Notes under the pieces: generated by a model | Database searches by the model: none | The model's input: the letters and a program-made list of their open reading frames with translations, nothing else | Told to the model about the DNA's origin: nothing | From: Minisyncoccota bacterium | GTDB taxonomy: Bacteria; Patescibacteriota; Minisyncoccia; Phycocordibacterales; JABMNX01 | Length of the DNA: 64,000 nt | Assembly: GCA_965222715.1 (NCBI GenBank) | Contig: OZ244961.1 | Coordinates: 462,277-526,276, forward strand | Direction of reading: 5' to 3' | Made by a program: the position numbers and the translations under genes | Shown here: positions 34,536-53,722 of the stretch, piece after piece | How positions within the stretch are numbered: the stretch's first letter is position 1 | How the letters are laid out: each line of letters begins with the position of its first letter

Positions 34536-34749
34536 GCTCTGTAGAGCCATTTTTATTAATATACTTTCTTTTGTTCCGTTCAATCTCCAAGTAACGCACT
34601 TCTTGGTTAGCGAGTGTAGCCCCGATATGAAATCGGGACTCCGACAGAACCGTCGGAGATAAGAGTACAACACTATTGCTCTTTCCATGCTCGTACGAGG
34701 CATAGAAGATCGACCGGTTAAGTTGTATACCGTAGTACACAACGTCTCC

Positions 34750-36212
34750 GATTGGAATTGATCCACGAACAGCTTCCGCTACCCGTGCCTTGTTACGACT
34801 TACTCCCTGTCACCGAATTTACCGTAGGATCCCACGAGGGGACACTTCGGGCACTCCCGGCTTCCTTGAGTTGACGGGCGGTGAGTACAAGGCTCGAGAA
34901 CGTATTCACCGCAGTGTTGCTGACCTGCGATTACTAGCGATTCCAACTTCATGAGGTCGAGTTGCAGACCTCAATCCGAACTGGGGCCACCTTTATTAGG
35001 ATTTGCTCCACCTCTCGGTATTGCGTCCCGTTGTAATGGCCATTGTATCACGTGTGTAGCCCAAGACATCAAGGGACATGCTGACCTGGCGTCATCCTCA
35101 CCTTCCTCTCCCGTGAGGGAGCAGTCTCGCCTGACAAATATAACAGGCAACGAGGGTTGCGTTCGTTACCCCACTTAAGGGAACAATTCAAATCACGAAC
35201 TGACGACGGCCATGCATCACCTGCTATGCCGCCCGAAGGGGTCCCGACTTTCATCGAGATTTCGTCATAGTTTCTAGTCTTGGTAAGGTTCTTCGCTTAT
35301 CGACGAATTAAACCACATGATCCACCGCTTGTGCGAGCCCCCGTCTATTCCTTTGAGTTTTAGCCTTGCGGCCGTACTACCCAGGCGGTCTGTTTAACGC
35401 GTTAGCTTCGCCTCTCAGAGGGTCGATACTCCGAAAAGCCAACAGACAACGTTTAGGGCCAGGACTACTGGGGTATCTAATCCCATTCGCTACCCTGGCT
35501 TTCGTGTCTCAGCGTCAGAAATGCACCAGCTTACTGCCTTCGCTTTTGGTGTTCCCCATAATATCAACGGATTTCACCCCTACACTATGAGTTCCATAAG
35601 CCCCTTGCACCCTCAAGATATGCCGTTTCCCTCGCACTCCTCAGGTTAAGCCTGAGTCTTTAACAAGAGACTAACATATCCGCCTACACACCCTTTACGC
35701 CCAGTGAATCCGGGTAACGCTCGGGGCACTCGTATTACCGCTCCTGCTGGCACGAGTTTAGGAGCCCCTTATTCCTGAAGTAACGTCAATAAACTTCCTC
35801 CTTCAGAAAAGGTGTTTACGTCCCTAAGGACTTCATCCACCACGCGGCGTCGCTCCGTCAGGCTTTCGCCCATTGCGGAAGATTCTCGACTGCGGCCTCC
35901 CGTAGGAGTATGGACCGTGTCTCAGTTCCATCGGTGGGGGTCAGGCTCTCACCTCCCCTACGCGTCGTTGCCTTGGTAGGCCATTACCCTACCAACAAGC
36001 TGATACGCCGCAGGCCACTCCTCTAGCGATAAATCTTTACCCCGAAGGGACCATCGAGTATTGTCCCGGATTTCTCCGGATTATCCCCGACTAAAGGGTG
36101 TGTACCTACGTGTTACTACCTCGTCTGCCGAGGGTCTAAACCCTCTCGACTTGCATGCCTTATCCACGCCGCCAGCGTTCACCCTGAGCTAGGATCAAAC
36201 TCTAAATAATGA
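34750..36212 (-). rRNA. 16S rRNA
   Basis: Minus strand carries AGAGTTTGATCCTAGCTCAG at the 5' end. Also carries 519-region ATTACCGCTCCTGCTGGCAC, 806-region GGACTACTGGGGTATCTAATCC, and GTCGTAACAAGG plus helix 45 at the 3' end. Recognisable sequence ends ...GUGGAUCA, followed by AUUCCAAUC instead of CCUCCUUA. Confidence 0.9.
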
Positions 36213-36536
36213 TCTGCCTTACGACAGTTCATAGAATGAACGAAACAAAAGAAAATATATTAAGTGATTCTCTTTTTTCTGGTTGCCTCGTTGCGACACG
36301 AGGACTTTTTTTGGATTCACAGGACCTGTTTGAAACAGGTCCTTAGACGAACTACACAGCCCCGTCAGAGCTATGTATTAAGGTTCGCACAAATTGCTAT
36401 TCAGTTTTCAAAGGCTGTATTCATAAGTGAACTGAGCCAAACAAAAACTGCCCTACGCAGTTGTAGAAGAGTATATAGGAGTCTAGCTCTAGAGTCAAGA
36501 AAGAAAAAACCGGAAAGTAAAGATGCTTTCCGGTCA

Positions 36537-37283
36537 CTATTTGAGTGGATTTTCCGATCCAAGCAAACCGAGAGTCACTCGAATTGCTGGAAGGTTTCTT
36601 CCAAGGGATATCCGAGTTTTAGAACTCTTTGCATAAGAACGTAAGTGTACAGCAACCACTTCTCCCCTACAGTTTAAAACTGCTGAGCCAGAACTACCTG
36701 GCCGAATTGGCCTTGACGGTAGCTGAGCAATGTATGATTCAAATGCTCGATCTCTACCAAGGAATGTGATTGGAGAAACCATAAATGGCCACCTTGATGG
36801 ATTCCCTACAACAAACCCGCTTTCACCTTCGCGTGGTTCTCGCTCTGAAAAAGTTGCTGGTACAACAGAAGTAAGAGGTGTGGCTACTTCAACAACACCA
36901 AGGTCGTACACTGAGTGGCGAACCCGAAGTGTTATTGTCCGTTCATACTCATTGAGATTTTCTGCAGACGGTAGACGTATATACGAACGTGACATTCTTA
37001 CTAATCGTAGGATGTTATCGAAAGTGAGTATGGGAATATCCCTGCTCTCACCAACTTCATTCAGCTCGACCATCTTCAAAAAATGATGGTTGACTAGCAG
37101 TAATGTAGGAGAGAGAACTACTCCTGTTGCGTGTGCATAGGAACCTCGCTCAACCCCAACCCACACAACTGATGATTCGATATTTCCAAGAATTCTTGGA
37201 CACGTATTTACAGTACTCGCAAATGCAACTTCTCCAATAAAAAACTTGAGAAGAAATATTGCGATGATGCTTAATCGGCACAT
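36537..37283 (-). CDS. Secreted trypsin-like (S1 family) serine protease
   Basis: Signal peptide MCRLSIIAIFLLKFFIGEVAFAS. His region ATGVVLSPTLLLVNHHF. Ser region RPGSSGSAVLN. Confidence 0.5.
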   Translation of the reverse strand: MCRLSIIAIFLLKFFIGEVAFASTVNTCPRILGNIESSVVWVGVERGSYAHATGVVLSPTLLLVNHHFLKMVELNEVGESRDIPILTFDNILRLVRMSRSYIRLPSAENLNEYERTITLRVRHSVYDLGVVEVATPLTSVVPATFSEREPREGESGFVVGNPSRWPFMVSPITFLGRDRAFESYIAQLPSRPIRPGSSGSAVLNCRGEVVAVHLRSYAKSSKTRISLGRNLPAIRVTLGLLGSENPLK

Positions 37284-37363
37284 TTATTCCTCCTTGAACT
37301 AGACTCCTAGAAACCTGGAGTGAATTAAACATTATTTTTTATAAATAATCAAAAAATTATTTT

Positions 37364-52595: not shown

Positions 52596-52629
52596 AAAAA
52601 AACGCCAAGAGTACTCTTGGCGTTTTTTG
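52596..52629. terminator. Bidirectional terminator: A7 / CGCCAAGAGTACTCTTGGCG / T6
   Basis: Perfect palindrome between the convergent genes 52219-52515 (+) and rplL (-). Confidence 0.55.
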
Positions 52630-52645
52630 TATGGTGGTATACAGC

Positions 52646-53170
52646 TTATTTAAGCTCTACCTTACCACCAGCTTCTTCTACCTTGGCTTTAATCTCATCA
52701 GCCTCCTCTTTCTTTACTCCTTCCTTAAGTACAGCTGGTGCACTCTCAACGAGATCCTTTGCTTCTTTAAGGCCAAGACCCATAAGGTCTTTCACTACCT
52801 TAATTACCGCAATTTTCTGATCTCCAGCACTTGCAAGCTCAACGATGAAATCACTTTGTTCACCACCATCAGCATCTCCGCCGGCAGCGGGTCCAGCTGC
52901 TGCAACAGCAACTGCTGATACACCAAATTTCTTCTCAAGTACTTTTACTAACTCATGGAGCTCAAGAACAGTCATGTTCTCAATGTCTTCAATAAGTTTT
53001 TTAAACTTCTCAGGCACTTCAACTTCTTCCCCTGCTTCTTCTGCAGGCGCTTCAGCTGCTGCCTCTTCTTTAGTTTCTTTTTTTTGCTCTTCTGCAGCAG
53101 GAGCCTCTTCTTTGGTCTCTTCAGCGGCTACCTCCTGTGCATCATCAGTTTTCTTTTCTTCGTCTGACAT
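52646..53170 (-). CDS. rplL: 50S ribosomal protein L7/L12 with unusually long acidic N-terminal extension
   Basis: C-terminus [44 protein letters not shown]. Dimerisation region [18 protein letters not shown]. First ~60 aa are E/K/A-rich low complexity. Confidence 0.8.
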
Positions 53171-53230
53171 AGTATCTTAATTACCTAGTAATCCCGATGC
53201 TTTGATCGGGACCCCGATAGTGTATCGGGG

Positions 53231-53722
53231 TTATGCTTCTTTCTTTTCAGCAACTTGCCCAAGTGCAATAACCAATCCTTGAATTGGTGAATTGATCACA
53301 TTAGCAAACTGTCCGTAGAGTGTCTGAAGTGGTGGAATTGATGCAATCACCGTCATCTCATCTTTGTTCATCAATTTCTGCTCGAACACTCCTCCGAGAA
53401 TTGAAAGCTCATCTTTATGATCTTTAGCAAAGGCGTGGACACCTCGTGCGGGGGCAACCGCGTCGTCTCCCCACGCAAGAGCAAGCTCTCCTTCGAGCTC
53501 AGGCACCTCGCCTTGAAGACCAGCGTCGTTAAGTGCGCGGCGTACCAGTGTCTTTTTTGCTACAAAGTACGTCACGTTATCTTCCTTAAGTTTTGCACGC
53601 ATCTCATTGGTGTCAGTCACCCCAAGACCATGGAAGTTCACAAACACCACTGAAGCAGCATTCTTGAGTGCCTCAGTAAGTTTTGCGAGTGTTTCTTCTT
53701 TTTGTTGATATGTTTTTGCCAT
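53231..53722 (-). CDS. rplJ: 50S ribosomal protein L10
   Basis: MAKTYQQKEETLAKLTEALKNAASVVFVNFHGLGVTDTNEMRAKLKEDNVTYFVAKKTLVRRAL. Confidence 0.8.
   Translation of the reverse strand: MAKTYQQKEETLAKLTEALKNAASVVFVNFHGLGVTDTNEMRAKLKEDNVTYFVAKKTLVRRALNDAGLQGEVPELEGELALAWGDDAVAPARGVHAFAKDHKDELSILGGVFEQKLMNKDEMTVIASIPPLQTLYGQFANVINSPIQGLVIALGQVAEKKEA

Follow-up and report, generated by a model that had tools for sequence, protein, structure and literature searches.

The Correia/NEMIS and Rickettsia palindromic elements measure 100-150 nt and carry terminal inverted repeats and target duplications. The double-hairpin elements (DHEs) of Allomyces are mitochondrial, and we know of no transposase for mitochondrial DHEs. 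REP sequences are defined by a conserved GTAG or CGTC tetranucleotide at one end (PMC3733652). In mitochondria, repetitive hairpin-forming elements and double-hairpin elements keep their stems conserved while their loops vary, and both intergenic regions and rRNA genes serve as their insertion sites (PMC2800124; PMC4478555). Here, we describe DHEs in a stretch of 64,000 nucleotides (the window) of contig OZ244961.1, from a Minisyncoccota bacterium. The host belongs to the Candidate Phyla Radiation (CPR) and is Paceibacteria/Kaiserbacteria-like, as judged from L10 homologues. In our assessment, the chances are evenly balanced that the hairpins of the window are copies of a short dispersed palindromic repeat, REP-like or mitochondrial-DHE-like, whose unit is a DHE of 39-47 nt. 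Copies of this element exist, their presence differs at orthologous sites, the boundaries of the insertions are clean, and the stem core is invariant with covarying flanks.

Like REP/BIME of enterobacteria and REPIN-RAYT of Pseudomonas, the CPR hairpins are short palindromes in transcribed extragenic or intercistronic positions, single or clustered, with conserved stems and variable loops; their presence varies at orthologous sites, and a role as a barrier to 3'-exonucleases on mRNA is plausible. Unlike these systems, the CPR element showed no GTAG/CGTC tag and no linked RAYT at the loci covered, and its stem has only 7 bp. Its hairpins abut in the same orientation, whereas REP alternate in BIME units or form inverted REPIN pairs around a spacer, and lineages that are 76% identical in 23S share its stem. 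On the sense strand, the base preceding the stem was G in four of five copies; GTAG was found in one copy only, on the opposite strand, and CGTC in none. The DHE is not a demonstrated REP-RAYT system. With mitochondrial DHEs, repetitive hairpin-forming elements and yeast GC clusters (PMC2800124, PMC4478555), it shares two adjacent hairpins, conserved stems and variable loops, insertion in spacers, introns and variable rRNA regions, persistence in transcripts and a patchy distribution between relatives. The mitochondrial elements reside in organelles and the CPR element in free bacterial genomes, and the stem sequences are unrelated; by analogy, and not by homology, the CPR element resembles the mitochondrial elements still more closely than REP/BIME. 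Correia/NEMIS and the Rickettsia palindromic elements are likewise small non-coding insertions that fold as RNA hairpins, lie in or next to genes and can alter the ends of open reading frames (ORFs); in one lineage described below (L258), the C-terminus and stop codon of rplJ are supplied by a DHE. Unlike them, the CPR element is much smaller and showed no target duplication.

An exact search of the whole window for CCCGAT-N(4-9)-ATCGGG returned five matches (34621-34637, 46386-46402, 46455-46472, 53193-53210 and 53213-53229), whereas 100 dinucleotide-preserving shuffles of the window gave a mean of 0.00 and a maximum of 0. An earlier reading of the letters alone (the sequence-only reading) had reported five near-identical hairpins and had proposed genome-wide enrichment over shuffled sequence as a check; within the window, five copies stood against zero expected. 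It had quoted the sequences correctly and had placed the hairpins at the right loci, with coordinates displaced by 0-5 nt, but had overlooked a sixth family member, CTCCGAC-GGTTCT-GTCGGAG (34639-34658), adjoining the hairpin of the 16S trailer. In total, the 64 kb contained seven hairpins, arranged as three double elements and one single hairpin. All copies had the same orientation, the minus strand being the sense strand of 16S, 23S and rplJ-rplL. They are listed here in sense letters, the five exact matches with their seventh pair included:

34620-34638, minus strand: UCCCGAU-UUCAU-AUCGGGG, second hairpin of the 16S-trailer DHE (predicted stability -11.7 kcal/mol); first locus of the sequence-only reading
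34639-34658, minus strand: CUCCGAC-GGUUCU-GUCGGAG, first hairpin of the 16S-trailer DHE, a compensated variant of CCCCGAC/GUCGGGG
46385-46403, minus strand: UCCCGAU-AUUAC-AUCGGGA, single hairpin of the 23S intron, directly 5' of P3; second locus
46427-46453, minus strand: UCCCAACCCUUU-AAU-AAAGGGUUGGGA, second hairpin of the intron DHE, a diverged, longer partner
46454-46473, minus strand: UCCCGAU-GUAACA-AUCGGGA, first hairpin of the intron DHE; third locus
53192-53211, minus strand: UCCCGAU-CAAAGC-AUCGGGA, second hairpin of the spacer DHE, 21 nt upstream of the rplL AUG; fourth locus
53212-53230, minus strand: CCCCGAU-ACACU-AUCGGGG, first hairpin of the spacer DHE, beginning right after the rplJ stop codon; fifth locus

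Each hairpin measured 19-20 nt, had a predicted stability of -9.8 to -12.9 kcal/mol and was located in a trailer, an intron or an intercistronic spacer only. Among all perfect 6-bp hairpins in the window, CCCGAT was the sole recurrent G+C-rich stem. The hairpins had previously been described as tied to rRNA insertions; this applies to the two copies within the 23S insertion, but not to the 16S copy, which lies in the 3' trailer.

The pairing of the hairpins was found by a scan for tandem and abutting hairpins, together with a relaxed motif scan of the window. The DHE consists of two directly abutting, self-complementary 7-bp hairpins, (Y-CCCGA-Y loop R-UCGGG-R) x2, with loops of 5-6 nt and a gap of 0 nt between the paired hairpins. 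The three DHEs of the window are found in the 16S trailer, the 5' periphery of the 23S intron and the rplJ-rplL spacer. A covariance model was built from six double elements and run over the window without filters. It recovered the spacer DHE (53192-53230, minus strand) at 56.5 bits and the 16S-trailer DHE (34620-34658, minus strand) at 48 bits (E=3e-8), both copies being members of the training set, and the intron DHE (46427-46473, minus strand) at 39.7 bits (E=1.5e-6), though this copy was outside the training set; the single hairpin at 46385-46403 scored about 18-21 bits. Nothing else in the window was significant, and no decayed copies were found there in this census. A weak candidate, CCCCGAG-CGAAUG-CUCGGGG (55263-55282, minus strand), which abuts an A+U-rich hairpin and follows tRNA-Pro at a distance of about 70 nt, reached a non-significant 11.6 bits (E about 0.9). 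Since the model was trained in the sense orientation, its strand preference is not independent evidence.

Other identities for the hairpins were rejected. Mimicry of the tRNA anticodon arm was discarded on the basis of loops of 5-6 nt and the lack of U33, and a CRISPR array because no site held more than two abutting hairpins and spacers were absent. A miniature inverted-repeat transposable element was dismissed, as no duplication was seen by eye at eight insertion sites and no transposase was found nearby. No intrinsic terminator was called on the sense strand at any of the window hairpins, terminator-like sites being found elsewhere, e.g. at 34500-34531.

In the covariation test, only the 5-bp core CCCGA...UCGGG was fixed, and the flanking pairs were scored. 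The inner flanking pair was Watson-Crick in 23 out of 24 hairpins (C-G in 13, U-A in 7, A-U in 2 and G-C in 1). The outer pair was Watson-Crick in 21 out of 24, nearly always Y-R, with one more forming a U.G wobble on the sense strand; hairpin 34620-34638 closes with a U.G wobble in its sense letters, and its plus-strand counterpart would be mismatched there (C/A). In the alignment of six elements, all 84 cells out of 84 were paired and five pairs changed on both sides, compared with 24-57% of cells paired in slid controls. Because members were found by their stem pattern, the invariance of the core is partly by construction; the covariation of the flanks is not. Loops were unrelated among the window copies. 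The inner pair was uniform within a genome, with U-A in five of the six window hairpins and C-G in all L258, L251 and L303 copies. The conserved stems and variable loops noted by the sequence-only reading were confirmed, and covariation, which it had proposed to look for across related genomes, was seen at the flanking pairs. Its suggestion of selection on the structure is supported by the invariant core, the covarying flanks, the unrelated loops and the lack of decayed window copies, with the constraint bearing on stem sequence as well as structure.

The DHE of the spacer lies between two ribosomal protein genes:

53231-53722, minus strand: rplJ
52646-53170, minus strand: rplL

The spacer is 60 nt long and is filled by the two hairpins. 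The near relatives of the host (comparison loci are designated L) show 66-75% L10 identity and 87-90% 23S identity to the window, 75% being the highest L10 identity in the protein collection. In these relatives, as in the window, rplJ and rplL are followed by a protein of 213-215 aa, then by a mechanosensitive-channel protein and 23S. Among the five nearest available lineages (L002, L003, L249, L251 and L253), no hairpins were found in the rplJ-rplL spacer, and the spacers differed among themselves.

The intron that hosts three of the window hairpins, all in its 5' periphery, was delimited by alignment to E. coli rrlH:

46223-46559, minus strand: group I intron of 337 nt, ORF-less, after E. 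coli 23S position 2593

This position is a known intron site in CPR 23S genes (PMC11270868). The intron matched Rfam Intron_gpI with 39 bits (E=1.6e-8), not reaching the gathering score of 50, and has the boundaries U at the end of the 5' exon and G at the end of the intron. The intron has 47 homologues: those of L002 and L249, and 45 more at metagenomic loci, returned by a metagenome scan with two conserved intron blocks. At the position of 46385-46403, a hairpin was present in all 48 introns, usually GNRA-capped and with a stem that varied freely with compensation; hairpin 46385-46403 is therefore a native intron hairpin. A CCCGAY stem at this native hairpin was observed in only two of the 48 introns, those of the window and L258. 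The DHE behaved differently: the L002 and L249 introns, the two that were readable among the nearest five lineages, had no DHE and exhibited a clean 46-column gap against window positions 46428-46473, with ambiguous flanking bases. A double hairpin at the same intron site was found in L285/L286, L266 and L267. In L285/L286, the hairpin UCCCGAU-GUAAAA-AUCGGGA is clearly homologous to the first hairpin of the window (loop GUAACA); the second hairpin is UCCCGAC-CAAAGC-GUCGGGA in L285 and UCCCGAA..UUCGGGA in L267. The three window hairpins thus resemble the P2/P2.1 peripheral hairpins of group I introns in their location, one of them at a position occupied in all 48 homologues, but family hairpins also occur in the 16S trailer, the rplJ-rplL spacer, the rplJ leader and a 3' untranslated region (UTR), and the DHE is missing in many introns of the same family.

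The same element was found in more distant CPR lineages. In L258, which is 76% identical to the window in 23S and 49% in L10, the rplJ-rplL spacer carries a DHE (UCCCGAC-GCUUA-GUCGGGA / CCCCGAC-CAAAGC-GUCGGGG) whose first hairpin includes the rplJ stop codon. The L10 protein of L258 has 165 aa, against 160-163 aa in most of the relatives listed, and the L258 relatives with 85-86% L10 identity have spacers of 16-22 nt in which the DHE is absent. Conservation of the hairpins at orthologous sites, on which the sequence-only reading had made its proposal depend, was thus lacking in the closest relatives but was found in the distant L258, where the same spacer carries the element. In L251/L252, a DHE lies in the rplJ leader (CCCCGAC-GCACA-GUCGGGG / UCCCGAC-UGAAAC-GUCGGGA); in L251, its 39 nt interrupt the conserved leader precisely, with GACAG on one side and CAGG on the other. 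Another was observed in the helix-98 region of 23S in L282 (UCCGAC..GUCGGA / CUCCGAC..GUCGGAG), and one in L303/L304 between convergent non-ribosomal genes, i.e. in a 3' UTR, where the L303 copy alone is followed by CUUUUU. Identical hairpins occurred at non-homologous sites (UCCCGAC-UGAAAC-GUCGGGA in the L251 rplJ leader and the L258 intron), and three second hairpins, those of the DHEs in the window spacer, the L258 spacer and the L285 intron, share the loop CAAAGC. Across 336 kb of non-redundant CPR loci outside the window, CCCGAC tied as the commonest 6-bp hairpin stem, with 10 occurrences in 7 loci. No description of a double-hairpin element in CPR bacteria was found in the searchable literature.

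The rplJ leader into which the L251 copy is inserted is itself conserved. This clade-specific leader (53723-53900, minus strand) reads UGGACUGAAGACAG...CCUGCCGAGG...CUUCAGAYC and is also present in L003, L249, L251, L253 and L258; at its end stands a terminator-like hairpin with a U-run behind it (53756-53772). The leader is probably an analogue of the L10 leader, and Rfam L10_leader gave no match in the window. The DHE was rejected as a part of this leader, as the leaders of the window, L003, L249 and L253 are devoid of it and that of L251 contains it as a 39-nt insertion. Between the leader terminator and the rplJ start, a stem CCCUGUGAAAU/AUUUCACAGGG enclosing two abutting hairpins of variable sequence was observed twice in L002 (about 9810-9990), once in L003 (about 9900-9960) and not in the window.

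Beyond the CPR, more than 119 matches to paired CCCGAT hairpins turned up in unrelated phyla when 185,579 species genomes were scanned. These were heterogeneous: among them were a Flavo-1 RNA, an Arthrobacter locus that is conserved and adjoins a tRNA, and species-specific repeats whose loops and flanks are conserved as well. Stem scans of viral contigs gave one hit for CCCGAT and zero and one for two control stems. Since the species-genome matches were heterogeneous and the viral control counts similar, these hits were not treated as the same family, and a universal CCCGAT hairpin motif was rejected, the single viral hits being chance-like. The double-element pattern had 0 matches in IMG/VR, and a phage link was ruled out on this ground. 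A viral contig of 40 kb (IMGVR_UViG_3300047160_017469; G+C content 56-58% in the stretches fetched) has three copies of the hairpin GTCCCGATTCAGAATCGGGA, all identical, at the following positions:

L009, 3263-3281: GTCCCGATTCAGAATCGGGA hairpin
L048, 3784-3802: GTCCCGATTCAGAATCGGGA hairpin
L048, 4508-4526: GTCCCGATTCAGAATCGGGA hairpin

Based on their identical loops, these are probably a repeat of the contig's own, unrelated to the CPR family.

The clean presence or absence of the DHE, its recurrence at non-homologous sites, its tolerance in introns, helices, trailers, leaders and spacers, and its fixed stems with drifting loops point to a dispersed, insertion-prone element. A small dispersed repeat had been offered as an option in the sequence-only reading, and the absence at orthologous sites of close relatives and the clean insertions at other CPR sites lend weight to it. 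Such a family would be patchy in Paceibacteria-type CPR and would have been repeatedly gained, and possibly lost, at permissive, non-coding transcribed positions: the periphery of the 2593 intron, variable 23S helices, the 16S trailer, the rplJ leader, the rplJ-rplL spacer and a 3' UTR. It may have spread as DNA. The stem sequence may be kept through recognition of the hairpin, in RNA or in single-stranded DNA, by a putative trans-acting protein, either a mobilising nuclease or transposase or a binding protein. Within the host RNAs, the copies would form stable, self-contained hairpins that are tolerated and may serve as exonuclease barriers or folding insulators, as proposed here by likeness to REP.

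Several observations weigh against a dispersed repeat. No transposase or nuclease linked to the DHE was found and the 64-kb window had no Y1/RAYT gene; among the best 120 of 5,773 homologues of the L002 RAYT, none was located on the source contig (617,472 bp). One lead on a transposase was abandoned, the proteins beside repeats of Woesearchaeota and Patescibacteria being an AAA ATPase and LepA. Neither a target-site duplication nor a consistent target motif was seen at the eight insertion sites, whose flanks were compared by eye. The window copies share their stems and not their loops, and are therefore not recent copies of one another. A purely selfish repeat accounts for the lack of decayed window copies less well than purifying selection on each copy does. 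All window copies are in rRNA or rplJ-rplL transcripts, and about three quarters of the non-coding space lies elsewhere. That the rplJ-rplL spacer, only 48-60 nt long, is occupied in two lineages whose L10 proteins are 49% identical is also a poor fit to a purely selfish repeat. Finally, most comparison loci were gathered via rplJ or the 23S intron, so that the distribution of sites is biased.

A tentative alternative, to which we give a minor share of our confidence, is that the hairpins are a functional, cis-acting RNA signal, in which a sequence-specific RNA-binding protein or nuclease would recognise CCCGAY/RUCGGG in pre-16S, in pre-23S (the intron) and in the rplJ-rplL mRNA, and so couple the processing, stability or expression of ribosome components. 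An invariant stem core with free loops and no decayed window copies would be expected of such a signal, as would the location of all window copies on the sense strand of rRNA or L10/L12 transcripts and a U.G wobble in one outer pair on that strand only. The rplJ-rplL spacer is occupied in two lineages, the rplJ leader in a third, and the native intron hairpin bears a CCCGAY stem only in the window and L258; an inner pair uniform within each genome would fit co-evolution with a protein. But the closest relatives, with the same genes and intron, have no DHE at the orthologous sites, which makes the element dispensable. Lineages differ in where it lies relative to rplJ (leader or spacer), and copies also occur in a non-ribosomal 3' UTR and inside variable regions of the mature 23S. 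Pfam gave no informative match for the genes around the L303 element or the conserved rplL neighbours, and no candidate protein was found among them. A specific form of such recognition, which we regard as doubtful, is that the hairpins would be operator sites of a putative dedicated RNA- or single-stranded-DNA-binding protein of genome-reduced CPR bacteria that links the precursors of 16S and 23S with the L10/L12 mRNA, controlling processing, stability or stoichiometry, with the switch of the inner pair reflecting co-evolution. Recognition at the DNA level, with a nucleoid or topology protein binding the palindromes as cruciforms or hairpins in or close to the operons that are transcribed most heavily, seems to us quite improbable. 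The BIMEs of E. coli bind gyrase and IHF, and the copies considered here lie in the 16S, 23S and rplJ-rplL units, each with a strong promoter-like site or leader, with a conserved stem sequence and loops of 5 or 6 nt. Nothing separates this DNA-level reading from an RNA-level one, but the U.G wobble favours recognition of a single strand over that of a duplex, and close relatives have the same operons without the element.

A classical REP/REPIN system, in which the palindromes would be mobilised by a single-copy RAYT (Y1 HUH transposase) elsewhere in the 617-kb genome, appears unlikely. REP palindromes measure 20-40 nt and number tens to hundreds per genome, and a cognate RAYT typically has copies of the repeat on its flanks. 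Short extragenic palindromes with conserved stems and variable loops, inside operons and sometimes clustered, are what such a system would produce, and RAYT-like Y1 transposases are common in Patescibacteria, as indicated by the 5,773 homologues mentioned above. In L002, a RAYT-like gene is flanked by identical copies of a different palindrome, four copies being found within 2 kb:

L002, 4619-5308: RAYT-like Y1 transposase gene
L002, 3450, 4532, 5130 (inside the ORF) and 5414: copies of ATCTTGACGTCCGACGTCAAGAT

REP-RAYT-like systems therefore exist in the clade. The two flanking L002 copies (4532 and 5414) are each followed by a T-run. Against such a system for the DHE stand the failure to find a RAYT in the window, on the source contig among the best 120 homologues, or near the elements in any locus, as well as the lack of a GTAG or CGTC end tag. 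The hairpins abut directly, and no spacer separates them as in an inverted REPIN pair. Most REP families are confined to one lineage, and the same DHE stem occurs in lineages with only 76% 23S identity. That the hairpins are unrelated local structures sharing a stable G+C-rich stem by coincidence or convergence was already disfavoured, and we give it very little credence. Hairpin 46385-46403 does occupy a native hairpin site of the intron, where stems vary freely across the 48 introns, paired CCCGAT hairpins occur in unrelated phyla, and the counts in viral contigs were very low and alike for CCCGAT and the control stems. However, zero copies are expected in the window, the same abutting architecture recurs at several sites and in several genomes with the shared loop CAAAGC, and the stem ties for the top rank among hairpin stems in independent CPR loci.

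The structural RNA genes around the rRNA copies were annotated with Rfam and ARAGORN:

34035-34109, minus strand: tRNA-Ile
34751-36210, minus strand: 16S rRNA
45778-45885, minus strand: 5S rRNA
45934-49666, minus strand: 23S rRNA (3.7 kb)

Hairpin 34620-34638 sits 113-131 nt past the 16S 3' end (34751) and precedes the strong terminator at 34500-34531. The rRNA genes are unlinked, with 9.7 kb between 16S and 23S-5S; the 16S unit has this strong terminator of its own, and the same promoter-like TTGACT-17-TATACT precedes both units (36470-36498 and 49963-49991, minus strand). The 16S 3' end (34751-34770, minus strand) reads GGAUCAAUUCCAAU, in which the anti-Shine-Dalgarno CCUCC is replaced by AUUCC, and no GGAGG-like site was observed upstream in 16 of the 17 gene starts inspected. 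Within 23S, an insertion in helix 45 (47998-48413, minus strand; E. coli about 1162-1229) holds two tRNA genes within a long basal stem:

48186-48261: tRNA-Phe(AAA)
48089-48166: tRNA-Thr(CGU)

The same site contains a tRNA Trp in L249 (15122-15198) and a tRNA Tyr in L251 (14437-14513), and L002 is without the insertion. The sequence suggests that 23S may be fragmented through tRNA processing at this insertion; tRNAs are not mentioned in a published survey of CPR rRNA insertions. Relative to E. coli, 23S also has further short expansions at 49295-49397 and 47417-47509 (after E. coli 275/290 and around 1714-1745) and a deletion of 21 nt at positions 2812-2832. Among the proteins encoded in the window, L12 (RplL; 52646-53170, minus strand) has an acidic N-terminal extension of about 50 residues that is shared by several relatives. 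A 187-aa protein with a PaaX central/Cas2-like domain (59207-59770, minus strand) keeps its position in relatives, and no CRISPR array was found in the window.

The genomes of CPR/Patescibacteria are among the smallest and most streamlined of bacteria, and the insertions in their rRNA have drawn much discussion as an oddity. If the dispersed repeat is confirmed, a double-hairpin module of about 40 nt would colonise the insertions, the rRNA flanks and the L10/L12 operon of CPR, and part of the rRNA 'insertion' sequence would be repeat DNA, and not intron or intervening sequence proper. It would constitute a bacterial counterpart to the mitochondrial double-hairpin elements, and its invariant 5-bp stem core with genome-specific variants would provide a handle for finding the putative reader protein. 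In practice, the DHE should be masked or modelled when CPR rRNA introns and ribosomal-protein leaders are aligned.

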